Source of the DNA: a virus
Direction: 5' to 3' (one strand)
Virus record (IMG/VR): IMGVR_UViG_3300037010_000793
Span: 1 to 64,000 of that record
Length of the DNA stretch: 64,000 nt
Below are positions 11,026-53,784 of this stretch, piece by piece. The first letter of the stretch is position 1; each line of letters opens with the position of its first letter. The notes under the pieces were generated by a model, which did not search any database, was not told the origin of the DNA, and was given only the letters and a program-made list of their open reading frames with translations. The translations under genes and the position numbers were made by a program.

Positions 11026-11136
11026 AAGTATCCCAAGTTAATTATACGATGCCCGAAGTTCACAGGTTTAATCCAAAAAGAAAAGATATATATTTTATCA
11101 TCTAACTTGATTATAATTAAACCTGAGTGATTCTGT

Positions 11137-20468: not shown

Positions 20469-21224
20469 TTATCCAAGAATCATCATTGCAGGCATCTGCC
20501 ATTTACTTTCTATCTCATCACGTAGCTCATCAATTTTAGCTTGCGCTTCGCCTTGCATACCTGCTCCATCGATAACTACACCACCAGGTAAAGCCACGTT
20601 ACCAAATTTACCTAATACTCTACCCCAGATCAGTTTTGATTGTTGTACCGCCATTTCTCTGAACCAAGTATCATTGAACACTTCAGGATCTTCTTCTGGG
20701 TCAACTTCTTTGGTGCATTCAATGATGACATAATCGCCGACTACCATTTTACTCCAATCAGTAACAATGTTAAGTTTGTACTTTACTCTTGAAAAGTTCC
20801 AAACAACTTTATTGTTAAACACAGAGCGAAGATCTCCTAATTGCTGTTCAAGACTCATATAACTCATTACTGAATATCTAGAATCAGAACTAGCGCCAGA
20901 TGCTGTCATGAACGAATCCCAAAATGAAACAGCGGTAATACCGTGCCAACCAAGCATGCTGCCGTTAGCGCTAATACTAACTTCTCTAATACCATTAATT
21001 GTTTTATCGAGTGTTAAGTATTTGTTATCAATATCAGTTTGACTGATTTGGTATGACACAATAGATCTTTCAGATCCGTTGTAGTGGTACATTCTGTAGT
21101 ATCTTAGTGTGTTATCGATCGCAGATAAGAATTGATCTGTTGTTAGGTTAACCCGAATAATAGGAGCACCTAATTGTAGCCTTATATATGATATTAAATC
21201 ATCATAGTATAGAATTTCGTTCAT
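20469..21224 (-). CDS. gp13: Neck protein gp13
   Basis: QLGAPIIRVNLTTDQ, YHYNG, FNDTWFR, WGRVLGKF..VALPGGVVIDG. Confidence 0.93.
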   Translation of the reverse strand: MNEILYYDDLISYIRLQLGAPIIRVNLTTDQFLSAIDNTLRYYRMYHYNGSERSIVSYQISQTDIDNKYLTLDKTINGIREVSISANGSMLGWHGITAVSFWDSFMTASGASSDSRYSVMSYMSLEQQLGDLRSVFNNKVVWNFSRVKYKLNIVTDWSKMVVGDYVIIECTKEVDPEEDPEVFNDTWFREMAVQQSKLIWGRVLGKFGNVALPGGVVIDGAGMQGEAQAKIDELRDEIESKWQMPAMMILG

Positions 21225-21250
21225 AGGATTACCTCAGAATTAACAAACAT

Positions 21251-21811
21251 TTATTGCCTATTTATCATTACTTTAGATAGAGCATGGTATAATTCTTCGC
21301 TGTAATCGATACCGTCATATAACTTAACAAAGCCGTCTAAATCGTTGTCAATAACCAGTTGCCTAGCTTTAGTTGAGGATACTGAGCTAACATCCGTTGC
21401 ATCTTGGTTTCTTTCACCGCTAGATATGATGCTGATAGACTCAAATGAATAAAACCCATGTTTAGCTTCTACACCATTGTACTTCGGTATCTGTCTATTA
21501 TGCTCAACTATTCTATCTGCACCAACTACCAAAGTGATATGTGTATATCCTTTAATGTATAGATAAACCAATGAGTCAAACATGTTATTAATAGCAATGT
21601 CTTCCACAATATTATTTTGGTATTCATTGAACATCAAACACATGAATTTTAGCTTATCATGATACGGTAATGGGTTTTTTGCGTTTTGTGTTGAGCTTGT
21701 GAATATTAACAAGTCTGAAGACGGTTCTGTGCTTGACATAAAATCAAACAAATGTAGATGTCCTTTGGTAGGTGGATTAAATCTACCAAAGGTGAATATT
21801 GCTTTATTCAT
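21251..21811 (-). CDS. Cytidylyltransferase-like (HIGH-family) nucleotidyltransferase
   Basis: FTFGRFNPPTKGH, KNPL, VVGADR, SSGER, SSTKAR. Confidence 0.88.
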   Translation of the reverse strand: MNKAIFTFGRFNPPTKGHLHLFDFMSSTEPSSDLLIFTSSTQNAKNPLPYHDKLKFMCLMFNEYQNNIVEDIAINNMFDSLVYLYIKGYTHITLVVGADRIVEHNRQIPKYNGVEAKHGFYSFESISIISSGERNQDATDVSSVSSTKARQLVIDNDLDGFVKLYDGIDYSEELYHALSKVMINRQ

Positions 21812-22040
21812 TAACCGCGTTAACCGCGTTAACTACATTTTTGTATTGTTTAATATGTTTAAGCATAAACTTGCGAGAAACAAACAACGCAATAATACTA
21901 ACACCAACAATCCAACTAGTTTCATATGAAATTACAACTATTGATCCGATAAAAACTAAAAGACCAAGTACACTTAATGATAAAAACGTTAATACAGATT
22001 TTTGTTGTTCATCTGTTAATTCTTCAATATCTACATGCAT
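21804..22040 (-). CDS. Small membrane protein
   Basis: Two hydrophobic segments; tightly packed with neighbours. Confidence 0.6.
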   Translation of the reverse strand: MHVDIEELTDEQQKSVLTFLSLSVLGLLVFIGSIVVISYETSWIVGVSIIALFVSRKFMLKHIKQYKNVVNAVNAVNE

Positions 22041-22235
22041 TTAAAAGAACCCCATAATAACGCCAAGAGGAAATATAAAAACGCCAATTGCGCGAGCGAC
22101 AACTTCGCCTGTAAGCGCTTCAGCTCCAAATAAAGTAACAATGTTTGACACATATCCAAGCACGATCAATAATGCAATAGCCAAACCAATTACGGTAAAC
22201 GTAAACGGATTATAATTGCGTTGTTTCTTAAACAT
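22041..22235 (-). CDS. Small membrane protein
   Basis: Hydrophobic; ARAIGVFIFPLGVIMGFF end typical of phage membrane proteins. Confidence 0.65.
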   Translation of the reverse strand: MFKKQRNYNPFTFTVIGLAIALLIVLGYVSNIVTLFGAEALTGEVVARAIGVFIFPLGVIMGFF

Positions 22236-22377
22236 CTAACGTCTCCTTAAAGAATGTTTTATCTTTATGTTTAGCACCCTTAAACTTTTTAGGTGTTTCA
22301 ACTTTATGTTTAAATCTGCATGAATGAAAGAATTGTTTTTGAGCTAATTCGCATTCAATGCTTTTCTTCTTTTTCAT
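22228..22377 (-). CDS. Small basic protein (weakly ArfA-like)
   Basis: SD AAGGAG plus ATG at 22377; RFKHKVETPKKFKGAKHK. Confidence 0.55.
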   Translation of the reverse strand: MKKKKSIECELAQKQFFHSCRFKHKVETPKKFKGAKHKDKTFFKETLDV

Positions 22378-22391
22378 AATCAACTCCTTAG

Positions 22392-22814
22392 TTAGAGTTG
22401 ATCGACTCCAACTGTAATACAAACGAAATAATACGAAATAAACAAGTACATGGTATAATGTGCTAACTGATCTACGCCAATAGCTATCCAAAATTTATTA
22501 TCAGAGACAGCCAAACTGTTACTCTTGTTATAATTCATCTTAATATAATCAATGATATAATGCAAAACTGTATCAATTAACGCAAAAATACCAGCAACAA
22601 GCAACACAGTATTCACGTTTGGATTATGTAGCGCAAATACAGATACACCAATTAAAACTGCATAAGTAAACACACCATGATCTAGCGAGTGTTCAATACC
22701 ATCAGAGTTAAACAAAATACCTTTTCCTTTAACCATTGCATCAGTCTGAATCACCCAATCGCAGTACATATGCTTAACAAATAATGCAAACAACGTGATA
22801 ACTAAAATACCCAT
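22392..22814 (-). CDS. DUF3307-family membrane protein
   Basis: KHMYCDWVIQ, HSLDHG, HYIIDYIK, IGVDQLAH. Confidence 0.8.
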   Translation of the reverse strand: MGILVITLFALFVKHMYCDWVIQTDAMVKGKGILFNSDGIEHSLDHGVFTYAVLIGVSVFALHNPNVNTVLLVAGIFALIDTVLHYIIDYIKMNYNKSNSLAVSDNKFWIAIGVDQLAHYTMYLFISYYFVCITVGVDQL

Positions 22815-22825
22815 ATAACCTCTAT

Positions 22826-23305
22826 TTACTTAATACTAGTCAAAGCAATAGCTGCTTTTTCATAAGCTGCGACTTTAGACTCGAGCGCTTTAATTCGAAC
22901 GGAATGCTTTGATATACGCTCAGCACAATGGTCTTCAATAATCATACGGTAGAAGGCGCCTAACCCAATCATTTTATTCACTTTAGGTGATGCAAAAGCG
23001 CAATCAGTAAAGGTAATAACATTGGTTGTGTGCATAATATCGATATAGACATAATTTAATGAATAAACGATATCGTAATTAACACCAACTTCGCGACGGA
23101 TACTAAATGAACATTTGTATCCTTGTATATCTGCTTGAAAATATACCAAACAGTCACCCATCGGTCTGCCTTTAAAGACATTTTTTACCGAAATTAAGTC
23201 TAGGTAGAAAGACTTTGCTGCTTGTTCCATTTCAAATAACCTCTTTTCATTTAATACGTGATTATTATATACTGTTTGGACGCAATTGTAAACTGTTTTC
23301 GTCAT
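22826..23305 (-). CDS. Hypothetical protein
   Basis: ORF fills the gap. Confidence 0.6.
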   Translation of the reverse strand: MTKTVYNCVQTVYNNHVLNEKRLFEMEQAAKSFYLDLISVKNVFKGRPMGDCLVYFQADIQGYKCSFSIRREVGVNYDIVYSLNYVYIDIMHTTNVITFTDCAFASPKVNKMIGLGAFYRMIIEDHCAERISKHSVRIKALESKVAAYEKAAIALTSIK

Positions 23306-23311
23306 ATTTTT

Positions 23312-23341
23312 AAAAGGAAAGGAAGCATTGCTTCCTTTCCT
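23312..23341 (-). terminator. Rho-independent terminator
   Basis: aggaaaggaagc/gcttcctttcct stem plus U-tract. Confidence 0.8.
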
Positions 23342-23375
23342 AACACGACTTTAGTTTTATAAAAAGTACTGCATA

Positions 23376-25064
23376 TCAGATCACGCTGTCGATCCTAGCT
23401 CGGATCTCATCAAATGTGCTGATGTTATAGAATAATCCATCTTCATACACTTTGACAAGAAGGCCTTGTTCTTCTTGTTCCGCGGATTGCTCATCAAAAA
23501 GAACAAGTTCATTGTCAACGCACTCAACACGAACAAGCCCTTTGGCTGATTTTTTAGTCCCATCATCAGTTTTAGGGTCTTTATTTAAGTTAATAGGTGC
23601 ACCATCTACGATTGCGTATGTAGCCTTAAGTGCCATACCCAATGTATCACGTGTGCTATAATTGTAAGTAAAGCTACCTGCAGCTACTATAACGTTGGTA
23701 CTTGCAAAGCCTTTTGCTTTTAGTCTATTGGTGATATCTAGTGCGCGCTTAACTGTGATGCTATCTCCATAAATCATGCCAATGTGACTGTCTAGTAAGC
23801 GATATCCTTTTTCTGTGATAGTACCGCCAAACGTTTCCCATAAGCATTCTACTGTACCTTTCATTTCCGGTGTAACTAACTCATCCTGAATAGGAGCAGA
23901 TAGAATACCTTCATCGGTAACAGTACATACCATATAGCTATTGGTATAAACCTCTAACTCTACGGTAGTGTTAACAAACACAAATGTGTTAACACTGGGG
24001 TTATTTTTAAACCAGCGCTCTACATCAGTTAGTGTTTTAACTGGAATAGCGATACCACAAATGATTTGAACAGGATCACCTGAATCTGGCCGAATGACTA
24101 CCTTTGACATTCCTAACGAATCGGGTGCTCGATTAAGAATATCTTCTTTTAGTCGAGGTACGATGTCAGTAATAACATTCCAGTAATCATAAGAATCACA
24201 TACCCGAGCAACAACACCTGAAGGGTAAACCTCGGTGATCAACCGCTTCATTTGAATATATTCTGCTTCATTCAATGAAATGTTGTTACGCTTAGCGATA
24301 GTTTGAATTGCTAAAGTCTCTGTCATATGCTCTGACGCATTAACAGATCCTGCGATGAATGACCCAAACGGTGCATTATAATAATCAACCACCATCGCAG
24401 TTGAACCGATAGCATCACTACCGTAAAAACACGTTAGATGGCACATACCTTGTCGAGCTGCATCAGCGCTACCAGACATACCTCGCGCACTAAAGTCATG
24501 GCATTGCCACTTTACAAAGCCAGTATTACCTACCGTTTCTATAGCAGCTGCAGTCAATAACCTGCGATAGGCTAGCGCGATGGTGGCATTGTTTACTGAT
24601 TTCCAGGTTTCATTTGAAATAACAGTCTCAAGGTAACCGGTAACCCAAGCAAAGTCTTTATGTGTGTTAATCATAGTCAAACCAGGGATCTTTGCCTTCA
24701 TAAGCGAACCCTCTTTTAGCGACTTAACTCTAATAGGAAGGTAACCTAGTTTGTGCAATGATACAATATGGCTATCATCGTATGATCCACCCGAAAAGTA
24801 GCAAACTTGTGAACGAAAGTTCTTCAACGCTGTTTCTACATCAACTTTAAAGAATTCACGTTCAAATGCATCATGAATCATTTTCATGGTAGCTTGAACA
24901 CCAAACCAAACCGCGTGATCATCTGTTAAGTTACGTGTTTCTTTTGGCAAGTGCTTAAAGCTACGTGGAGTGAATGTTTCATAGATATACTCAGTACCTG
25001 GAAACATCTGAGCTTTATGTGAAATTTTATATGAGTCGGCACTCATTAAAACATTATTAATCAT
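23376..25064 (-). CDS. nadV: Nicotinamide phosphoribosyltransferase-like protein (NadV/Namat)
   Basis: ADSYKISH, HDFSARG, ASEH, VCDSYD, IRPDSGDP, IYGDSIT, STRDTLG, KDPKTDDGTKKSAKG. Confidence 0.95.
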   Translation of the reverse strand: MINNVLMSADSYKISHKAQMFPGTEYIYETFTPRSFKHLPKETRNLTDDHAVWFGVQATMKMIHDAFEREFFKVDVETALKNFRSQVCYFSGGSYDDSHIVSLHKLGYLPIRVKSLKEGSLMKAKIPGLTMINTHKDFAWVTGYLETVISNETWKSVNNATIALAYRRLLTAAAIETVGNTGFVKWQCHDFSARGMSGSADAARQGMCHLTCFYGSDAIGSTAMVVDYYNAPFGSFIAGSVNASEHMTETLAIQTIAKRNNISLNEAEYIQMKRLITEVYPSGVVARVCDSYDYWNVITDIVPRLKEDILNRAPDSLGMSKVVIRPDSGDPVQIICGIAIPVKTLTDVERWFKNNPSVNTFVFVNTTVELEVYTNSYMVCTVTDEGILSAPIQDELVTPEMKGTVECLWETFGGTITEKGYRLLDSHIGMIYGDSITVKRALDITNRLKAKGFASTNVIVAAGSFTYNYSTRDTLGMALKATYAIVDGAPINLNKDPKTDDGTKKSAKGLVRVECVDNELVLFDEQSAEQEEQGLLVKVYEDGLFYNISTFDEIRARIDSVI

Positions 25065-26913: not shown

Positions 26914-27366
26914 TCAATACATTTTTGAAAATTTACATTCACCATTCGCTACAGTCATGGTGTAGAACTTACTTAAATCCCCTGCCATTCGCGAATAATC
27001 TCTTCCACCGTCAATCATCATATTGCCAAGTGTTACACAGTCATGTCGATAAGCACTATAATAGAATACACCGTCTTCTACAAACCCATCAATAGCCATG
27101 GATTCGATAGATATACCATTTGTTATCACAAGTTTGTCTTTATTATATCCAATAGCGTAATAATTAGAACCTCTTGGGTGGGGTGTTTCGTTGTAAAAAA
27201 TGTGATACGGTTGATACGTAAACTCACCGCTAAGATCTTTAATTTGACTTTTGCAAATATATCTACCTCCATACGCTTCAATTGCTTTATGGATTAAGTC
27301 TTCCTCTTCAGGTCGTATCATAACCTTTATTAAACCCAATTCTATCATATCAAATCCTTTCATCAC
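26914..27366 (-). CDS. Hypothetical phage protein
   Basis: YSAYRHD...MIDGGRDY pattern. Confidence 0.65.
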   Translation of the reverse strand: MMKGFDMIELGLIKVMIRPEEEDLIHKAIEAYGGRYICKSQIKDLSGEFTYQPYHIFYNETPHPRGSNYYAIGYNKDKLVITNGISIESMAIDGFVEDGVFYYSAYRHDCVTLGNMMIDGGRDYSRMAGDLSKFYTMTVANGECKFSKMY

Positions 27367-27432
27367 GAGGTTTAAATTAAAAAGATGTACATTGCATTAG
27401 CTTTTTGATTTGAACCTCGTATACACAGTTTA
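27365..27432. repeat. Inverted-repeat element, copy 1 (20-bp stem, 16-nt loop)
   Basis: acgaggtttaaattaaaaag / ctttttgatttgaacctcgt; homologous to 39465..39531. Confidence 0.85.
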
Positions 27433-31075: not shown

Positions 31076-32107
31076 TCAATTAGTAGATTCTTCTTGACGA
31101 TTGTCGAACGCTGAGTGAATAACACTAGCAATAATAATACTAACAGAAGTCAATGCGATCATATAGTCAGGGATTTCTAAGAACGGTTCCATCATAATCG
31201 ATGCCGATAGGAATCCAATAGACCAGAATGCGCCAGTTTCAAGGTATTGATACGTTTTGAGTGTACCAGTTGCATCTAACATAACTGTCATAGATCGAAC
31301 AAACATTGCGCCAATACCTAATCCAGCAGCAATAACGAATACGTTAGACGAGATAGCGAAGGAAGCTAATACACCATCAGCAGAGAATGCGGAATCTAAG
31401 ATTTCAATATAGATGAATGTTCCAAGACCTGCTTTTGCTACAGTTCCAGCCGTATTTGCAGTTGCTTCATCAGTTGCACCTTCTAACAAGTGCTTAATAA
31501 TCTCAATAACGACAAAGGCAATCATACCAGCTAATGCCGCCATAAAGAATTCATGCCCACCATGTTCCATATTCAGCGATACTAAGTATGATAATGAGCC
31601 GACAATCATAGCTTGTACCATATCAAGTGATCCAATAGCAGCTAATGGTTTTTCGATTGGTACAAGCCAGAACTCATCACGTTCTTTATCCATGAAGAAG
31701 CTCAAGAACACCATTGATAAGAACGCGCCACCAAAACCAGCTACCATAGAATGCGAACTAATTAATGTATGTTCAAACTGGGTAGGGTTTGTTAACGCCC
31801 AATCAAGAGCAGTTGACATCGATACATCACCGACAATTGATACAATTCCAATAGGAAACAGTACTCGCATACCGATTACTGCAATAAAGATACCAACGTA
31901 TAAGAACATTTTCTTCCAGAAGATGCTCATTTTACTTAGCTGTGCTGCGTTAACCACCGCGTTGTCAAACGAAAGGGCAATTTCAATAACCGCCAATGTT
32001 AACACCGTGCCTAATAAAAGCAGGCTGCCTGTCTCAATATACACTGCGCTAAGCGCTACAATTGCAAAGATAATTGATCCGCTAAAATACTTAATTAAAG
32101 TATTCAT
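31076..32107 (-). CDS. DUF475 / TerC-like membrane protein
   Basis: EIALSFDNAVVNA, GMRVLFP, EILDSAFSADGV, GLGIGAMFVRS, YLETGA. Confidence 0.9.
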   Translation of the reverse strand: MNTLIKYFSGSIIFAIVALSAVYIETGSLLLLGTVLTLAVIEIALSFDNAVVNAAQLSKMSIFWKKMFLYVGIFIAVIGMRVLFPIGIVSIVGDVSMSTALDWALTNPTQFEHTLISSHSMVAGFGGAFLSMVFLSFFMDKERDEFWLVPIEKPLAAIGSLDMVQAMIVGSLSYLVSLNMEHGGHEFFMAALAGMIAFVVIEIIKHLLEGATDEATANTAGTVAKAGLGTFIYIEILDSAFSADGVLASFAISSNVFVIAAGLGIGAMFVRSMTVMLDATGTLKTYQYLETGAFWSIGFLSASIMMEPFLEIPDYMIALTSVSIIIASVIHSAFDNRQEESTN

Positions 32108-32307
32108 TTTTATTTCCTATTTGTTTAAATGTTTATGAAAGAATTACTTTTACATCTTCGTGAGAATAAAGTTAGGTGTAAATTAAGTCATGATAGATTT
32201 TGTCAATGTTATGTTCATTACCGTCATTTAATGACTTAATCTTCATTTCCTTCATGCTCGCTAAATATATAATACACTATATCCTAACTAGCTTAGAATG
32301 TAAACAG

Positions 32308-32994
32308 TTATTTCTTTGTCCAAGTCAAAAACTTAGAAGAAGCTAAATCATCGTAGAATGTATCAGGTAAAACGTTCATTGGGTTTTTGTAGTGAATAAA
32401 ACCAACGTTGCTATACTCATCAGCTAAACCGTTTAAGAAACGGGTATTAACATCGTTACCGATACCAATAAATTGCACAAACGTGTCTTTATTAGCACGT
32501 GTTAAGAACTCATTAACAATAAGTTGATCATGTTGAGGCGTATCACCGTCTGTGATAATGACTAATAGCGCTCCAGTGCTAACAGATACTTCCTTCTTAC
32601 CGAATAAACTTCCAAATAATGATTTCTTCGGTTTAGCTAAACCATACATATTTTCAAAGATTGGATAGAATAGCGTGCCACCATCAGCTAAATTACCATA
32701 TTGTTTCATATATTTGCCAAAATCTTTTGATGTTGCACTCGACGCTTCTTTAAATGAAGTATTGAAGAAACCAACATCAATAGAGCCGTTATCATCAAAC
32801 TTCATACCAGACACGATCATCATATCTACGATATATTCAACGAAACCAGATGAAAATTCGTCACGCATTGATCCTGATCGATCGATTGCAATGCGAACTT
32901 CTAATTTTGGTAATTGAGAAAGATCAAATCCGCTTTTTTCTAAGCTAAGTGAAAACGTCTCTTCAGTTTTACCGAGATCCAGTGTGAATGACAT
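32308..32994 (-). CDS. Ter-associated vWA domain protein
   Basis: MIDAS DRSGSM, FDDNG, GGT, IITDG, FVQFIGIG. Confidence 0.85.
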   Translation of the reverse strand: MSFTLDLGKTEETFSLSLEKSGFDLSQLPKLEVRIAIDRSGSMRDEFSSGFVEYIVDMMIVSGMKFDDNGSIDVGFFNTSFKEASSATSKDFGKYMKQYGNLADGGTLFYPIFENMYGLAKPKKSLFGSLFGKKEVSVSTGALLVIITDGDTPQHDQLIVNEFLTRANKDTFVQFIGIGNDVNTRFLNGLADEYSNVGFIHYKNPMNVLPDTFYDDLASSKFLTWTKK

Positions 32995-33015
32995 ATTTGT
33001 GTTCCTTTTAATAAG

Positions 33016-34188
33016 TTAAAGTGTTAAACCCGTTGCAGTAGAGCGTGCACCTGTTGCAGTTGATTTATTTTGTAATTGGTTCAAGTATTCAATTTGTGAC
33101 GATTGCATCATAATAGCATCCTGTTCACGTTGCAATTTTGCATTAGCTTCAGTTGTCTGAACACCTGAAATAGTATCAAGCATTGCGCTTCGAATGTGAC
33201 TAAGCGTATCGTTGCTGATGACACTAGTATTCAAGCTGGCAGCTGCAGTTAGCGCGCTGTTTTTCGCATTCGTAGCTCCTGTTTGAATTGTCTGATTAAT
33301 AATATCTTTAACGCTGTTATTGAACATATTAGACTCATCAGAATCTAAAGAGTGCATATACATAACAAATTGCAATTTCAAATCGGGAATAACTGCAATT
33401 ACTTCGCGCATAGCCGAAACAGTAGCGAGTGATGTCTGCTGCTTAGAACGAATCAGAGGAGCGTTATTCTCAGTAACAATTTTACGTCGTTCTAAGTTGT
33501 CAAGTTTAATCTCGATGCTATTCAACCTGACTTCCATATCACGCAGGTATTGTGCTTTAATCATAGACTGCGGATCTGCTGGATCGATCGGCGGAATATT
33601 AGCAATAAAATCAATTTGGTATTGCTTCCATTCTTTTACTTTTTCGATTAGCTCATGAATATACAGATGATTCGCATAATTTTCTTTATACAGATTCTCT
33701 AAATCCTGAATCCAGATATTATGTTTTGTCATATGTGTTTGAATATCGCTAGCAACACCGTCAAAAACAGTATCAGCGTCTTTCAATCGCTTAGTTAGCT
33801 CGGTTTTAACATCAACAACAGTTCTATTAAACCAGTTGATAATTTTACCTAATCCCTTTGGTTGTAAATCATTTGCAATATTAGCAGGATCTAACCGACC
33901 ATGTACTGCACTCATGCGAGACATAATTTCACCAAGCTCATTAAATTTCTGCATTGATACAGCTGAGATAATCTTCTCAGTTGTCGCAGATACGCGAGAA
34001 TTTGCGTCTGCTCCTAAGCTTTCAATATCTTGCTCTGTAATAAGCTCGCTTTGAATCAGAGGAGTGTGATCTTTAGCAACAATAACTTTTGTTAAATTAT
34101 TTGTTGCAGCGCTTACTGTCAGACTAGGCTTATCATGAGTTGCGATAACAACCTCGTTTGAAGATAACCAGTCAAATTCATCAGCCAT
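33016..34188 (-). CDS. TelA-like toxic anion resistance protein
   Basis: Coiled-coil; PKGLGKIINWF, LENLYKEN, APLIR; Ter-cluster context. Confidence 0.75.
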   Translation of the reverse strand: MADEFDWLSSNEVVIATHDKPSLTVSAATNNLTKVIVAKDHTPLIQSELITEQDIESLGADANSRVSATTEKIISAVSMQKFNELGEIMSRMSAVHGRLDPANIANDLQPKGLGKIINWFNRTVVDVKTELTKRLKDADTVFDGVASDIQTHMTKHNIWIQDLENLYKENYANHLYIHELIEKVKEWKQYQIDFIANIPPIDPADPQSMIKAQYLRDMEVRLNSIEIKLDNLERRKIVTENNAPLIRSKQQTSLATVSAMREVIAVIPDLKLQFVMYMHSLDSDESNMFNNSVKDIINQTIQTGATNAKNSALTAAASLNTSVISNDTLSHIRSAMLDTISGVQTTEANAKLQREQDAIMMQSSQIEYLNQLQNKSTATGARSTATGLTL

Positions 34189-35079: not shown

Positions 35080-35707
35080 TTAACACACCTAATTGATAAG
35101 CGTACGATGGAGATTTCTGAGAAAAGAATTCAAATGGCTTCACTGTTTGCGTTTGTGTATCCATGCAGATGAAGTCATTTGTGCTGACTTTGCGGGAAAA
35201 CTTGTAAATCACCCCGTCAAGCACAGAACCGTTAGACTCTTCCTCACTAATTAAACATAATGTTTCGCGATTAAACTCACGAAACAATGTTGCTATAAAC
35301 TCAATTGATAGTTTAACATTGCCATTATCACAATACGAATCGAAACGTGTTAAGTATACATTTTTAGCGTAATGGATACCATCTTCAAACATGTACTTAC
35401 CGCCAATAATGTATACAGTTTCAAATATATCATGAGCTTTAACAACCATTAGCGCTTCTTTGATGCTACGGTATACTTCGTGGCCTCTAACGTCTTCGCG
35501 TTTTGCTGTAGAACTGATAATAATCATTCGACGATTATGTAGATCATTTGGTAAAGATTTAAAGGTATTCAAACCCATTAACACAGTTTTACCATTGGTC
35601 ATATTCTTAAAATGATTCAAATCAATACGTGACTTAACGCATAAATCATTTGAACCAGTGCCGATATACCCATCATTATCAACGGATAATATTAAATTCA
35701 CTTGCAT
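35072..35707 (-). CDS. frd: Dihydrofolate reductase
   Basis: DLNHFKNMT, VLMGLNTFKSLP..LHNR, YIIGG, YLTR. Confidence 0.92.
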   Translation of the reverse strand: MQVNLILSVDNDGYIGTGSNDLCVKSRIDLNHFKNMTNGKTVLMGLNTFKSLPNDLHNRRMIIISSTAKREDVRGHEVYRSIKEALMVVKAHDIFETVYIIGGKYMFEDGIHYAKNVYLTRFDSYCDNGNVKLSIEFIATLFREFNRETLCLISEEESNGSVLDGVIYKFSRKVSTNDFICMDTQTQTVKPFEFFSQKSPSYAYQLGVLNV

Positions 35708-35716
35708 GGTAATCTC

Positions 35717-36616
35717 CTAAACTGCCATCTTAATGTTTTCAGCGCCTAAAGTAGGACCCTTAACACAATTTGAAACTACAATGTCTGACCACTGTGTAGA
35801 CAGCACATCTTGTAGAGTTTTTATCTCTTTATCTTCCTTAACATCGCATATAGGCTCGTTAAGATATGCAGCTGCACCGCGACAATGATAGTCTAATAAC
35901 TCATCGACAATTGGCTGCTGGTTTTCATAGTAGTGTGCATTTGCTACATTAAGACGAATATTGCCCATTTTATAACCAAGCGCTCGACTAAACAACAACA
36001 ACCAAAAGAAGCTAAAAGCTAAATTATAAGGCGCTCCGTACGGGTAGTCGTTTGATCTAGATGTAACATCCAAATTCAATACCCCGTTAATATACACAAA
36101 GTTATATGCATAAAAACAAGGTTCAAGAGCCATATCATTTTTATCGTTTGGATTCCAGATAGAAATTACATATCGGCGTGAGGTTGGATTATCGCGAAGA
36201 CCTTCAAACACTTCCTTTACTTGGTCAGTTACACCGCCAAATGATCTAAACTGGTAACCATAAGCTCGACCAATGTTATTTTCAGGTGTATCAAGCATTC
36301 CCCTTGAGTCAAGAAACTCTCTAGTTGAATTACCGTCCCAGATATGAATATTCTTTTCCTGAAGTTCAGTAACGTCAGTTGAACCTCGAAGCATCCACAT
36401 CAACTCTTCAAACGCAATACGTGGTGCAAATGAACGGCATTGAATAAACGGAGCATACTTATTTTGTGTATGAAAGCGAGTTGTAAGACCAAACATTTGC
36501 TTGCTTCTACCTACTGACGTTCTATCGCTTTGCCATTCGCCCATGGTGTTAATAACATGTAAATTCAATAAGTAGACATGTTCAACCACATTGTTGTTTG
36601 CGTAATATGCCAGCAT
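35717..36616 (-). CDS. td: Thymidylate synthase
   Basis: EELMWMLRG, IHIWD, GRAYGYQFR, SRR, MALEPC, RSND..G.PYN, NAHYYEN. Confidence 0.93.
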   Translation of the reverse strand: MLAYYANNNVVEHVYLLNLHVINTMGEWQSDRTSVGRSKQMFGLTTRFHTQNKYAPFIQCRSFAPRIAFEELMWMLRGSTDVTELQEKNIHIWDGNSTREFLDSRGMLDTPENNIGRAYGYQFRSFGGVTDQVKEVFEGLRDNPTSRRYVISIWNPNDKNDMALEPCFYAYNFVYINGVLNLDVTSRSNDYPYGAPYNLAFSFFWLLLFSRALGYKMGNIRLNVANAHYYENQQPIVDELLDYHCRGAAAYLNEPICDVKEDKEIKTLQDVLSTQWSDIVVSNCVKGPTLGAENIKMAV

Positions 36617-37759: not shown

Positions 37760-37789
37760 ATTATAATACATGTATGCTCATAAGTAAAC
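37760..37789 (-). promoter_or_regulatory. Early promoter
   Basis: GTTTAC...TATAAT. Confidence 0.75.
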
Positions 37790-37805: not shown

Positions 37806-38570
37806 TTAAAATGGATCGGATTTATCTATCATATCAGCAATCCTTACACTAGTAACATCAACAATCTTACATGTTACCATCTCAACTGTGATGGTGTTAA
37901 TGGTTTCTGTTGAAATATCAACAATACTAATTTTACCAGTTCTATAAAATCCAGTGTCTAAGAATATTTGCTTGCCCATCTTTTTAGGCTCTTTGACAAT
38001 AGTATGACCAGTGAATAAGTAATCAATTCCTATAACATCAACTTCAATCTTAGCAGAATGAACCAAACGACCCCAAATAAAACCTTGTGCGCAGAATGTA
38101 TCTCTTGCGTCGTAAGCGCTGGTAATCTCATCCCAATATTCAATATTAGCAGGTAGCTCAGCGTGAACGATGCCATATTTGCGATTATTAAATTCAATAT
38201 CGATTGCGCTAGGTAATTCGTTGATGATTGATTGAAGGTGTCTAACAACTTTAACCTTGTGCGGTAATCCGCTGGTAAGCATGTCATATACCCACTTGTT
38301 ACCATTACCTACATTACCAAAGTATTCATTAAGGATCATCAGCTCGTGATTGCCAATCACTGTCTTAAACCAGGGGCATTTATATAAACTAATTGATAGG
38401 ACATTATCAGTTCCTCGATCGACAACATCACCTACACAGAATAGACGGTCTTTTTCATAATCAAATTTAATATGATCTAGCGCAGCTATCAGTTCCTCAT
38501 AGCAACCGTGAATATCACCACAAACATAATCTTTACCGTCTACATTTTCATAGTAAGATTCTAATTTCAT
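37806..38570 (-). CDS. Ser/Thr protein phosphatase (PphA/NinI-like metallophosphoesterase)
   Basis: GDIHG, VGDVVDRG, GNHE, VHA, GHT, LDTG. Confidence 0.93.
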   Translation of the reverse strand: MKLESYYENVDGKDYVCGDIHGCYEELIAALDHIKFDYEKDRLFCVGDVVDRGTDNVLSISLYKCPWFKTVIGNHELMILNEYFGNVGNGNKWVYDMLTSGLPHKVKVVRHLQSIINELPSAIDIEFNNRKYGIVHAELPANIEYWDEITSAYDARDTFCAQGFIWGRLVHSAKIEVDVIGIDYLFTGHTIVKEPKKMGKQIFLDTGFYRTGKISIVDISTETINTITVEMVTCKIVDVTSVRIADMIDKSDPF

Positions 38571-38582
38571 GTTAATCCTTAT

Positions 38583-39407
38583 CTAAGCAACTAAGTGCGA
38601 TAATTGACTTCGCAACTTCTTTACAACTGTTCTAAAAATTTCATCAACCCGCTGATGGCTAACGCCTAGCTCAATAGCAATCTCTTTTAGAGTCATTTTA
38701 TCTTCATCAATTAAACGTTTTTGAATTACAAACCGCTCCCGCTCATTGAATTTATCTAACGCGCCGTGAACTTTGTTGAGAATATTAAGTTCATTGTCTT
38801 CTGTTATCGCAATTGATTCAGGGTTAGAGTCAAAATCAGGAACCTCAACTACCGTTTCTTCATTGTCATATAGTTGATATGTTGATTCAATTTTAGCGCT
38901 TAATCTAATATCCATCTCAATTACATCTTCTACTTTTACGTTCAATTGAGCAGCAATCTTATTAGCGTCTTCAATCGTAATTGGAAGATTGCTTTTCTTT
39001 AGCGATTTTAGATTGAAGAAAAGCTTTTGTTGTGATTTAGTAGTAGCGATCTTCATAATATGAACATTGTTCAAAATATAATCATACAGTTCAGCTTTAA
39101 CGTAGTAACCAGCAAAGGTCATTAACCGGACACCTTGCATTGGGTTAAACTTCCTAACTGCTTTCATTAAGCCAATTGAACCTTCTTGAATTAGATCAAT
39201 AAGCGGTAAGTTATACCCTTTAAAGAGCGATGCAATTGTGATAATATTCTTGAGATTATGAATTACTAGCTTCTCTGCAGCAAATAAATCATTATTTGTG
39301 ATATAACGATTAGCTAACGAATATTCTTCATCTTTAGATAGATCAGGGAAGGATTTGATATGTGCAATATACTGATTATTTTCAGATTGAATGGTTATTG
39401 AGCTCAT
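38583..39407 (-). CDS. rpoH: RNA polymerase sigma-32 (RpoH)-like sigma factor
   Basis: GYNLPLIDLIQEGSIGLMKAVRKFNP..GVRL.TFA; RpoH box IATTKSQQKLFFNL; region 4 HTH TLKEIAIELGVS. Confidence 0.9.
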   Translation of the reverse strand: MSSITIQSENNQYIAHIKSFPDLSKDEEYSLANRYITNNDLFAAEKLVIHNLKNIITIASLFKGYNLPLIDLIQEGSIGLMKAVRKFNPMQGVRLMTFAGYYVKAELYDYILNNVHIMKIATTKSQQKLFFNLKSLKKSNLPITIEDANKIAAQLNVKVEDVIEMDIRLSAKIESTYQLYDNEETVVEVPDFDSNPESIAITEDNELNILNKVHGALDKFNERERFVIQKRLIDEDKMTLKEIAIELGVSHQRVDEIFRTVVKKLRSQLSHLVA

Positions 39408-39464
39408 TTTGCTTTCCTATTACTTGCTTATCTTTAATTATAACCTATCAAATCTTGTCTCTAT

Positions 39465-39531
39465 GAGGTTCAATTCAAAAATATGTATATTCTATTAGCT
39501 TTTTGAATTGAACAACGCGATGACAGTTTAA
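39465..39531. repeat. Inverted-repeat element, copy 2 (14-bp perfect stem)
   Basis: gttcaattcaaaaa / tttttgaattgaac; loop and trailing acagtttaa are shared with copy 1. Confidence 0.85.
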
Positions 39532-39805
39532 TGAGTTTAAACACACTGCCTGTTTTAACGAATAACAGACCATTATCACGACGTTCAATATCTTTATAAT
39601 ATGACCCTGTCAGCTTCATCCATGATTTACTAGCCGGGAATATAAAGAAGCTTCATGCTCGACAAGAGTTTCTACACGTAATGAGTTTGTATTCAGTTTA
39701 ACCCCTGTATTGTTTCCTATCAGATGTAAACTTAAAATTACTAAACCGATCCTCTGTTAACTTTACACTGCTTCGTAATGCTTCTTTAACTTCTTGCTTT
39801 GTCAC
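39530..39805 (-). pseudogene. Probable frameshifted small early gene
   Basis: GTG 39805 with SD AGGT and promoter; a protein-like reading (..QYRVKLNTNSLRVE..SWMKLTGSYYKDI..) needs two frameshifts at G/C runs; end approximate. Confidence 0.4.
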
Positions 39806-39882
39806 GTTGCGTTACCTATGTATTAGTTTGTTGTAAACATTATAACATAAAATAAAGCAAAGATAAACTATTTTTAATAAAA

Positions 39883-50287: not shown

Positions 50288-50930
50288 CTTTTATCTCCAA
50301 ACTAACCGATACACCTTCTTCGAATCTAACAAGATTGACTAACGAGTTCTTTGGTTTGGTTTGCTTTCGAATGCGGGTACGAACCTCTGGTGAAACTTCG
50401 ACATTAATCGGACCATTCCAATCTCCTTCATACTCGCATTCTATGTCAGCTTCCCACAACTTTGTCCTAGGATTCCAAGTCGGCTTACTATGAAATGCAA
50501 AAACGTCATAATCAACACGGTAACTAGCTCTAGGAAAAACTCCATCAATAGCGATATAATTATACCCATTAGGAACTTTGACAATTTCACCCCAAAAGTA
50601 AAAACTACTAATGTCAGCATGTTCTGGATTCGACTGACATTGATCTTGGTCTTGAATTGTTGGTATTTTTGAGTTCATGGCTAATTTTTCCATTAATTGT
50701 TGGTGTCGAACACTGTAAACTTCTGATGCTAATTTCTCACTGAGAACATTGAACATATCGACAGGAATATTATATTCTTGCGAATATTGGTCTACAACAG
50801 CATAAAATGGGTCAACTTCGTATAGGAAGCACCCGTCATCGTTTAACCCAGTTTCATACGCATCGATGATTTGTTCGAGTTGGTCGCTAGTGAATTGGCT
50901 GGCGATTAGATATTGTCGAATGTTCATCAT
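50265..50930 (-). CDS. Hypothetical early protein
   Basis: SD GAGG; promoter at 50989..51018. Confidence 0.6.
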   Translation of the reverse strand: MMNIRQYLIASQFTSDQLEQIIDAYETGLNDDGCFLYEVDPFYAVVDQYSQEYNIPVDMFNVLSEKLASEVYSVRHQQLMEKLAMNSKIPTIQDQDQCQSNPEHADISSFYFWGEIVKVPNGYNYIAIDGVFPRASYRVDYDVFAFHSKPTWNPRTKLWEADIECEYEGDWNGPINVEVSPEVRTRIRKQTKPKNSLVNLVRFEEGVSVSLEIKDVHNTSQ

Positions 50931-51022
50931 TTTGGTTTCCTCATCAGGATTTAGTAGTTAAATTTAAGGTTTCCATCAACTTGTAATTATTATAACCTAA
51001 GTCATGAGAAAAGTAAATAGAT

Positions 51023-51479
51023 TTAATGGTTATCGTTGTCAATAATCACAGTGGTTCCTGTATTGAATACGAAAGTTGATGATGCTTTCGTCAGAATAAA
51101 AAATTTCATCAGTGATTCCAACCGATGCATGGTCAACATAAGATGAGGGGTATGTTCCCACCCACAACACATTGTATCCTAAGTATTCAGAAATAACATA
51201 ATTGAGTTTATCGAAAATGCTTTCATCATTAGAATCAGTTTCATCAATGTATGCTGCTTGTGCATATAGATAACTGAGACGGTCTTCCCAATTGGTTAAT
51301 GTTTCTATGCCCCAACCAAACGCACCGCCAACAACCAAAATTGTATCGGACTCTTTGTCGTATAAAATTGATGTTTCTACTTCAACAGGTTTTCGTAATT
51401 TCGAAGGGTCAGTTCCTAACGTGAATGAGTGAGAAGAACTTGAGTTGGTCTCAAACGTAGAATTGCGGATTTGTTTCAT
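51023..51479 (-). pseudogene. 'RxxxFETNSSSxHS' family protein with a frameshift near its C-terminus
   Basis: MKQIRNSTFETNSSSSHS, FGW, YVDHAS; removing one base at about 51072 restores ..IINFVFNTGTTVIIDNDNH*. Confidence 0.65.
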
Positions 51480-52352
51480 TGTACTTTTACCTTTTCAAAA
51501 ATTTCACGGATTGTTAGATTATCTAAGCTGTGTCGAATTGGAGAAGTTGAGCTAACAGCAAATTCACCTTTCTCCGCATCGATATACATAGTGTGTGACC
51601 CGTCAGTACCCATATAATATGTATCATAATCCGACCAATTAGCCAATACACGCTTTGGGTTCAATTGTTCAATTGCTAAATTGTCAAAAGATAATTTAGC
51701 TTCATGTACAGCATTGAATAATTTTCGATACCAAGTCATAATGCATGCTTGAACCTGTTTCTCTCTAGTTTCGATGTAACGAGAACCTCGACGGAAGTTC
51801 TTGTATCCTAATAGCAACACCTTACCTGAATTTTTACTGACGATGTTGGATAATTCTCCGTAAGGAGTCACCCCAACAATAACATGATTGACCGCATGTT
51901 CATAATCCCAAACAAGCGGAGTCTTAGTGTAAGAATAACCACCCCCTTTAGATGACCATTAGAAATCAATCGTTCTAGACGTTTACGTTCATCTGCGAAA
52001 TGGAATTCATTCACAGTAACATTACAAATTTTACCTTGATTTGATAGTTCCTCAACAAACTCATCGAACCCAGCATGAGCTAGTGGATTACCGCCACCAA
52101 TGGCGATTTCAACACCGGCCGGTAATTGCGAATATAGGTCGATGATTTTAGATAAATCTGGGACTTCATTCCCTTCGTTGTCGAGTTCTCGTGACACCAA
52201 GCACAACCAGCATCACACCAACCATTGATCTTTACATCCATAGATTCTGGGAATTCTACGTAAGGTGTTAAGACATCTGTCATTCTGATCTTGGTTCCAT
52301 CTTTGTGGATTTCTACTGACCACGAACCATTGGAATATTCATGTAGTTTCAT
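51476..52352 (-). pseudogene. Radical SAM enzyme split by two single-base frameshifts
   Basis: PESMDVKI..WCDAGCAWCHE (CxxxCxxC), EIAIGGGNPL, NVTVN, LLLGYK, YMGTDG..TMYIDA; shifts at G-runs near 52172 and 51942. Confidence 0.85.
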
Positions 52353-53195: not shown

Positions 53196-53708
53196 TTAGC
53201 AGTTATTATCATTTTGAGTGTATGGTGACTGAGCTTTAATAGTCTCAATACAGCTAGCAATCAATAATTTATGATTTTTCCACCATTTTAACGCGTATGG
53301 GTGCATCTTCTGAATCTTTTTGTCTGAGAAGTTTAGCCACTCTTCATGACTGTAATGAAGATTACCAACGCGAACACTATCTGTATAGATATACGTCTCC
53401 CAACCTTGAAGATTAATGATAATAAGAGCAACGCCACGGAGGTCTGCGTTGTGAAGGTTTACACAACGGAGGTCTGCTCCTCGGACGTCTGCTTTGCGAA
53501 GGTCTGCTCCTCGAAGATTTACTCCTTCGAGGTCTACATTACGAAGATCTACATTACGAAGATCAGCTCCGCCGAGGTCTACGTAGCGAAGGTCTAGACC
53601 TCGAAGATCCGCTTTACGAAGGTTCGCACGAACACCACCTTCTTTACCTTCTAACCATAGCTTATGTAATTTAATGATTTCATTTAACTGTTGTTGAGTT
53701 AATTTCAT
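53196..53708 (-). CDS. Pentapeptide-repeat protein
   Basis: A/V-D/N-L-R-x repeats; HKLWLEG..GVRANL N-terminus. Confidence 0.92.
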   Translation of the reverse strand: MKLTQQQLNEIIKLHKLWLEGKEGGVRANLRKADLRGLDLRYVDLGGADLRNVDLRNVDLEGVNLRGADLRKADVRGADLRCVNLHNADLRGVALIIINLQGWETYIYTDSVRVGNLHYSHEEWLNFSDKKIQKMHPYALKWWKNHKLLIASCIETIKAQSPYTQNDNNC

Positions 53709-53733
53709 ATTCTGTTCTCCGCGTTGTTTAGCA

Positions 53734-53784
53734 TTTGTTCATTTGTTAGATATATTATAACATGTTGGTTGTGACTTGTAAATA
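53734..53784 (-). promoter_or_regulatory. Early promoter cassette, type B
   Basis: 29 bp identical to the cassette at 53081. Confidence 0.8.

Follow-up and report, generated by a model that had tools for sequence, protein, structure and literature searches.

Does a T4-like phage that carries a full-length homologue of the bacterial heat-shock factor sigma-32 (RpoH) use it on heat-shock promoters or on others? The question is raised by a gene in the IMG/VR record IMGVR_UViG_3300037010_000793 (G000, 76,844 bp), of which the first 64 kb, hereafter the window, were the starting point of our analysis; all genes of the record lie on the minus strand. The gene is followed by a Ser/Thr phosphatase gene (Table 1). 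Sigma-32 heat-shock promoters read CTTGAA-N13-15-CCCCATnT, and sigma-32 is itself controlled by DnaK/J, GroEL and FtsH. In the T4 transcription programme, sigma-70 serves the early genes, MotA/AsiA the middle genes and gp55/gp33/gp45 the late genes. To our knowledge, the phage sigma factors that have been studied fall into highly reduced (T4 gp55), ECF-like (extracytoplasmic function), SPO1 and phiEco32 types. The evidence presented below is best fitted by a functional RpoH of bacterial descent, adapted to the phage, in which residues predicted to read promoter DNA have been exchanged and then held constant.

Identity of the sigma gene

An earlier note on this DNA had recognized a full-length RpoH homologue, and profile, structure and tree analyses bear this out. 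The protein matches both Pfam PF04542 (Sigma70_r2) and PF04545 (Sigma70_r4). It scores 253 bits against the NCBIfam model of the sigma-32 subfamily (NF005143, cut-off 241), at most 111 bits against the RpoS and RpoD models, and 252.7 bits against the stricter equivalog model TIGR02392, which is below the cut-off of 323.1. Its best sequence match in the PDB is E. coli RpoH (8hkc_E, 1.2e-51; RpoS, 5e-22), and the same chain is the top fold match (E 3e-16) of an AlphaFold model with a predicted local distance difference test score (pLDDT) of 80.9. Aligned with RpoH of E. coli K-12, the phage protein reads FAGYYVKAELYDY against FAVHWIKAEIHEY in region 2.4, TTKSQQKLFFNL against TTKAQRKLFFNL in the RpoH box and VSHQRVDEI against VSAERVRQL in the 4.2 helix; the E. 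coli strings quoted in the earlier note turned out to be exact. The RpoH box is present as QQKLFFNLK, with R133Q and R140K departing from residues that are 99–100% conserved.

Three metagenomic proteins encoded on tiny contigs (P0002–P0004) are close relatives, with 88, 86 and 64% identity, and together with the phage sigma they make up the four members of the lineage considered here. The next-best matches are cellular beta- and gamma-proteobacterial RpoH proteins at 36–45% identity. A metagenome scan returned only distant RpoH sequences (at most 43% identity), none of them at a locus sharing further window genes. In a quick IQ-TREE analysis of 66 rows, the four lineage members form one clade (support 100) on a stem of length 1.24. 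This clade falls on the RpoH side of the tree, with a Shimodaira-Hasegawa-like approximate likelihood ratio (SH-aLRT) support of 94 against RpoS, RpoD and FliA, and outside the cohesive cellular beta/gamma RpoH group. No donor of the phage RpoH can be named from this tree.

The sigma of Mza defence systems (NF041931) was considered as an alternative identity and dropped, with a score of 82 bits for a cut-off of 800 and no Mza context. Separately, ten proteins of 650–900 aa (P0159, P0162, P0163, P0171, P0199, P0200, P0215, P0260, P0262 and P0266) have a C-terminal half with an RpoH-like domain that is 37–41% identical to the phage sigma; they are probably fused sigma factors of Mza-type defence systems (NF041931).

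Promoter-reading residues are replaced throughout the lineage

In the E. coli sigma-32 structure 8HKC, D77, E81, I84 and M87 contact the beta' clamp helices, L253, E265, R266 and R268 contact the -35 box, and T128 and K130 contact the spacer and extended -10 element; H107 is the wedge at -12/-11, and N94, V97, F104 and W108 form the A-11 pocket (PMC10216364). E265A and R268A are among three alanine changes at -35 contacts that cripple E. coli sigma-32 (PMC10216364). We tabulated these positions, in E. coli numbering, in an alignment of 81 cellular beta/gamma-proteobacterial RpoH with the four lineage members.

Residues D77, E81, I84, M87, L253, R266, T128, K130 and F104 are unchanged in all four lineage members, as are L47 and A50 of region 2.1; the I54 position is V, as in most RpoH, and the RpoH-box core LFFNL is kept. 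The -35 readers E265/R266/R268, which are E/R/R in 100% of the cellular proteins, are Q/R/D in every lineage member. The recognition helix as a whole carries A264H/F, E265Q, R268D, Q269E and E271F/Y, that is, changes at five of eight consecutive residues. All four members also share H107Y, H114Y/C and E115D/Q, at residues that, like W108, take part in opening the -10 in 8HKC, as well as W121V, R122H/Q and R133Q/E, and, on the flap-tip side, W244L and L245I. W108 is Y in three of the four, P0004 keeping Y-W at 107-108. All of these changed positions are 95–100% invariant in the 81 cellular sequences. More widely, the motif ER[IV]RQ is kept by nearly all of 120 near matches and 80 metagenome loci, and about 10 of 150 library representatives deviate from it, including the sigma of a 214-kb viral contig (SQQRVMEI).

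All three relatives, at 88, 86 and 64% identity, have exactly the same new helix, Q-R-V-D-E-I. It is therefore maintained rather than decaying, which argues, at the level of sequence, that its residues are under selection. The change in the residues for the -35 box and for opening at -10, described in the earlier note as a re-tuning, is real and fixed in the lineage.

Transcription of the sigma gene

In the window, the TATAAT hexamer upstream of the sigma gene (39442-39437, minus strand) is not preceded at 17–18 nt by GTTTAC, and a stem-loop occupies that place. The earlier note had taken the hairpin for a replacement of the -35 element. The arrangement exists as described, but it is specific to this strain, related strains being without the 417-bp stretch. 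Contigs from runs X1, X3 and X4, which belong to other studies, skip 39422-39838 and have 23 other bases at the joint 39421/39839. On the gene strand of these related strains, GTTTAT-N18-TATAAT is followed by an early-promoter leader, a ribosome-binding site and the sigma ATG, and the leader is the same as that found after many early promoters of the phage. Because related strains join the gene directly to this promoter, the sigma is an early gene. Transcription of both the sigma and the phosphatase gene early, by host sigma-70 polymerase, is what fits these sequences best.

The 417-bp stretch behaves like the insertion or deletion of a PeSL plus ORFan, PeSL being the promoter-stem-loop cassettes, with ORFans, of T4-type phages (PMC2839356). 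As in PeSL, an early promoter, a stem-loop and an ORFan occur together and vary in presence between close strains. Unlike the GGGG...CCCC stems of PeSL, the stems here are A/T-rich, and they are known from sequence and predicted fold.

Two kinds of repeated element were also observed. A/T-rich long hairpins with arms like AGGTTTAAT...ATTAAACCT form a dispersed family, with copies at 11055-11132, 27365-27432 and 39465-39531 of the window, at 75462-75536 of G000, and at 33176-33253 and 35675-35752 of a related record, G001 (see below). The RpoH-like gene has one copy upstream of it, and a second precedes the early promoter of the relative's gp55-like gene; a folding energy of -25.5 kcal/mol (z -4.5) was obtained for the best copy. 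A promoter-plus-leader cassette of about 100 bp (ATTTAC-N18-TATAAT with a shared transcribed leader) is found at 50927-51025 of the window and at 51644-51743 and 53666-53763 of G001, with 91–93% identity between and within both phages.

A conserved phosphatase partner

The downstream gene, noticed earlier as a Ser/Thr phosphatase 12 nt away, encodes a member of the PPP family with intact metal-binding motifs (GDIHG, GDVVDRG and GNHE). It matches Metallophos PF00149 (1.1e-12, 49 bits), the NinI-like family phrog_246 (1.4e-53, 183 bits) and the NCBIfam PrpA/PrpB models (1e-28, under the equivalog cut-offs). Cellular PrpA/PphA works in a protein-misfolding pathway (Cpx/htrA) (PMC6610125). The sigma-phosphatase pair is covered, and its junction bridged, by contigs from four independent runs; since contigs of diverged strains also bridge the junction, the pairing is conserved. 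These contigs, together with an even GC content (0.33-0.38), rule out a chimeric contig at this locus. Partial lists of strain differences comprise 6 synonymous and 7 non-synonymous changes in the sigma gene and 20 synonymous and 6 non-synonymous changes in the phosphatase gene.

Table 1. Features of the sigma-phosphatase locus (positions in the window).
Feature	Position	Strand	Basis or remark
Next early-type promoter, GTTTAC-N18-TATAAT, just past the phosphatase gene	37760-37789	-	marks the end of the two-gene unit
Lambda-PP/NinI/PrpA-type Ser/Thr (PPP-family) phosphatase, 254 aa	37806-38570	-	hidden Markov models (HMM) and motifs
12-nt spacer between sigma and phosphatase genes, with AAGGA ribosome-binding site	38571-38582	-	no room for a promoter or terminator
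RpoH-like (sigma-32 branch) sigma gene, 274 aa	38583-39407	-	open reading frame (ORF), HMM, fold, tree
417-bp strain-specific cassette (leader, 49-aa ORFan, stem-loop, -10)	39422-39838	-	comparison of runs
TATAAT -10 hexamer without GTTTAC -35, within the strain-specific insert	39437-39442	-	sequence
Stem-loop, 14-bp stem and 18-nt loop	39465-39531	-	predicted fold, -14 kcal/mol, z -2.6
49-aa ORFan inside the 417-bp cassette	39470-39619	-	
Early-type promoter, GTTTAT-N18-TATAAT, predicted to drive the operon	39839-39868	-	direct in related strains

Genome and promoter classes of the lineage

Genes of the window encode a gp6-like baseplate wedge protein, 25–30% identical to those of T4-type phages and cyanomyoviruses, a tail tube and tail proteins, DNA ligase, a NAMPT-type enzyme and a Prs-like enzyme. 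The half of the genome that G000 lacks was approached through relatives. A second IMG/VR record (G001, 81,961 bp) matches the contig over its first 936 bases at 91.6% identity and extends from there into the missing half. It encodes tail fibres, terminase, portal, major head protein, sheath, a gp55-like late sigma beside gp47/46, PhoH, RNA ligases, ribonucleotide reductase (RNR), six tRNAs, gp45 and gp44. The next stretch, with gp62, the gp43 DNA polymerase and topoisomerase II, is supplied by a third record (G002), and the gp45-44-62-43 synteny was recovered across the relatives' records. The lineage DNA examined thus amounts to about 165 kb and includes gp55, gp45-44-62-43, gp46/47, RNR and virion genes; about 10–20% of the genome lies outside it, and the three records do not close a circle. 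On gene content this uncultured phage is a distant T4-like myovirus, half of the picture coming from relatives at 86–92% identity. Its DNA is present in microbial-mat and sediment metagenomes from four studies. A megablast search of a phage collection gave no match, and the top tblastn matches bearing phage names were found to be bacterial contigs.

Throughout the 165 kb, the RpoH-like protein is the sole Sigma70_r2 match, and no match to AsiA or to the MotA activation domain was detected. Early genes of G000 and G001 are preceded by GT(T/A)TAC-N17/18-(TGT)TATAAT, and virion genes in the relative by TATAAATA late promoters. No sigma-32-type promoters were observed in this DNA. CCCCAT occurs three times on the coding strand of G000, never at a promoter position; CTTGAA is absent from the intergenic DNA of G000 and G001, for 3–5 occurrences expected; and searches for CCCCAT, CCCATnT, CTTGAA and dyads revealed no enrichment in the lineage DNA. 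Enumeration of k-mers and 5-mer dyads after masking of the early promoters gave A/T-rich noise only, 49 upstream regions without TATAAT or ATAAATA, read by eye, had no shared element, and matches in a generic sigma-70 and terminator scan were no commoner than in shuffled sequence.

Some further features of these records were noted. A tellurite-resistance-like protein (phrog_5890) and a membrane protein (phrog_30252), encoded at 31076-34188 of the window, share an accessory region with the NAD-salvage, Prs-like and sigma genes. At 71680-75415 of G001 the RNR large subunit is divided between ORFs of 540 and 371 aa, with a 319-aa ORF in between; this may be a mobile insertion (for example, a homing endonuclease) or reflect a split gene. 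The terminase large subunit is matched by two neighbouring ORFs of 163 and 702 aa, with 121 bp between them, at 20801-23522 of G001, where the gene may likewise be split or interrupted.

What the phage sigma may do

The reading that we favour, with a probability of roughly 0.55, is that of an early-made alternative sigma of changed specificity, which probably steers host RNA polymerase to promoters other than heat-shock ones. The predicted docking surfaces for the host core polymerase are intact in the protein, as is its basic machinery for opening DNA. The side chains predicted to recognize the -35 box and the -12/-11 junction were exchanged and have since stayed constant within the lineage, giving a reading head found in no cellular RpoH. 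Because docking is kept while the reading residues are changed and conserved, the sigma would most likely take the host core to promoters that differ from the canonical CTTGAA-N13-15-CCCCATnT. We infer from the residue pattern that core is bound and that specificity has changed rather than been lost. Its targets may be few, or may lie in the unsampled 10–20% of the genome, in the host, or among the phage's own GTwTAC/TGTTATAAT promoters.

Several observations weigh against this answer. A target promoter for the sigma was not found in the 165 kb, where intergenic k-mer and dyad enumeration gave no classes other than the early promoters, together with their leaders, and the TATAAATA late promoters. 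Early-type promoters stand before the gp55-like gene and upstream of the 45-44-62-43 block, so that no obvious job is left for another sigma, and a cascade in which host sigma, the RpoH-like sigma and gp55 follow one another cannot be seen in this DNA. The second half of the genome is represented by relatives and not by the same strain. Moreover, DNA-contact residues are not statistically enriched in changes: the lineage deviates at 30 of 88 near-invariant columns overall, and at 3–4 of 8 contact residues of that kind. General divergence therefore explains part of the residue pattern. Many of the 30 changes are conservative; those of the helix are not.

The absence of a separate promoter class would be explained if the sigma read the phage's own GTwTAC promoters. 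A captured heat-shock sigma might then have been rebuilt as the general sigma of the phage for its abundant GTwTAC-N17/18-TGTTATAAT promoters. R268D and E265Q, which remove readers of the G:C pair in CTTGAA/TTGACA, would fit the T:A pair found there in every strong phage promoter, if the residue-to-base assignment for sigma-70 R588 is, as we presume, correct. We consider this rather unlikely. If true, early genes and replication genes would be transcribed independently of host sigma-70, for instance when mat or sediment hosts are starved or dormant.

The sigma could instead act on the host. The earlier note had suggested that it induces host chaperones. In this view it would read host sigma-32 promoters and raise GroEL/ES, DnaK/J and proteases early, the raised chaperones helping to fold phage proteins and the PrpA-like phosphatase tuning the misfolding response. 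T4-type phages depend on host chaperones, the protein belongs to the RpoH family, and it retains T128 and K130, the readers of the extended -10 element, as well as the backbone contact R266. That no phage promoters for the sigma were found would also suit an action on the host, as would the stabilization of host sigma-32 by phage RB43 via its J-protein Rki (PMC3486835) and the Cpx/htrA role of cellular PrpA/PphA (PMC6610125). However, the residues on which E. coli sigma-32 depends for -35 binding and activity, E265 and R268, are Q and D here, and the wedge H107 and H114/E115 are replaced. Since these residues are invariant in cellular RpoH, sigma-32 promoters of any host should need them, and E265A and R268A already cripple the E. 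coli factor. Induction of the host heat-shock response thus appears unlikely. A further suggestion, a T4-style middle sigma with a private promoter class in place of MotA/AsiA, draws on the early expression of the gene and on the failure to detect AsiA and MotA, and studied phage sigmas mostly read phage promoters. It is opposed by the lack of a third class in the 165 kb, whose genes have early-type or TATAAATA promoters. Both suggestions are weakened because neither a sigma-32-type nor a third class was seen and because gp55 and the replication genes stand behind early-type promoters; we regard the middle sigma as quite improbable.

A protein that binds DnaK/DnaJ/GroEL/FtsH and so stabilizes host sigma-32, or that occupies core and lowers host sigma-70 transcription, would need no promoters of its own, and none were found. 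L47, A50 and the I54 position (V) of region 2.1, the RpoH-box LFFNL and the core-docking residues are kept, as expected of such a decoy or competitor. Conservation of the new 4.2 helix and of the region 2.4 residues down to 64% identity would, however, be needless for a pure decoy, and the segment matching the E. coli DnaK site, which we take to lie at about 197-201, is altered (P197 lost, L201V/I). Such a role also seems quite improbable, and changed specificity remains the reading that we prefer.

Comparison with known systems

The phage sigma resembles cellular RpoH (8HKC, NF005143) in its domain order, its RpoH box and its core-docking and extended -10 residues, and it is 37–44% identical to RpoH of beta/gamma-proteobacteria. 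It differs in standing behind an early sigma-70-type promoter, in a helix that reads HQRVDE rather than AERVRQ and a wedge that is YY rather than HW, in scoring below the TIGR02392 cut-off, and in its long stem outside the cohesive cellular clade.

Phage RpoH-like genes are already annotated in public records, and our literature search found no paper on the function of a phage-encoded RpoH. Other examples are gp39 of Salicola phage SCTP-2 ('RNAP sigma-32 factor-like') and about ten IMG/VR records (L001, L088-L096), which have in common with the present case an RpoH-branch sigma in a large myovirus-type genome. They differ in being 31–42% identical, in having no neighbouring genes in common and in being without a phosphatase partner, and most of them keep the cellular ERVRQ helix. 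Among other phage-type sigmas, a change of the E265Q/R268x kind is found only in L001 (SQQRVMEI) and a few unplaced representatives. The L001 gene (5242-6003 of IMGVR_UViG_3300025012_000028, 214.5 kb) is phage-borne and combines E265Q with a non-basic residue at R268; E265Q with a non-basic residue at 268 also occurs in P0169, P0202, P0205, P0228, P0232, P0241 and P0250. The IMG/VR relatives of P0169 proved to be other sigma types.

With T4 the phage shares GTTTAC-type early promoters, TATAAATA late promoters, a gp55-like gene beside gp47/46 and the 45-44-62-43 synteny; unlike T4, it has no detected AsiA or MotA and carries an extra full-length sigma-70-family sigma. Like Rki of RB43 (PMC3486835), the gene belongs to a T4-type phage and is directed at the sigma-32 circuit, but Rki acts on host sigma-32 via DnaK, whereas here the phage itself carries a sigma-32 homologue. 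What is new here is that the -35 reading head has been replaced and the replacement fixed, that strain comparison places the gene behind an early promoter, that its pairing with a phosphatase is conserved, and that a matching promoter class is documented as absent from the DNA examined.

A full-length RpoH taken over by a T4-like phage is a natural experiment in rewriting sigma specificity. If the sigma reads a new motif, this motif would be traceable to four or five identified residue exchanges on a fold of known structure (8HKC). Should the sigma still act on host stress genes, it would give the phage a direct route to setting host proteostasis.

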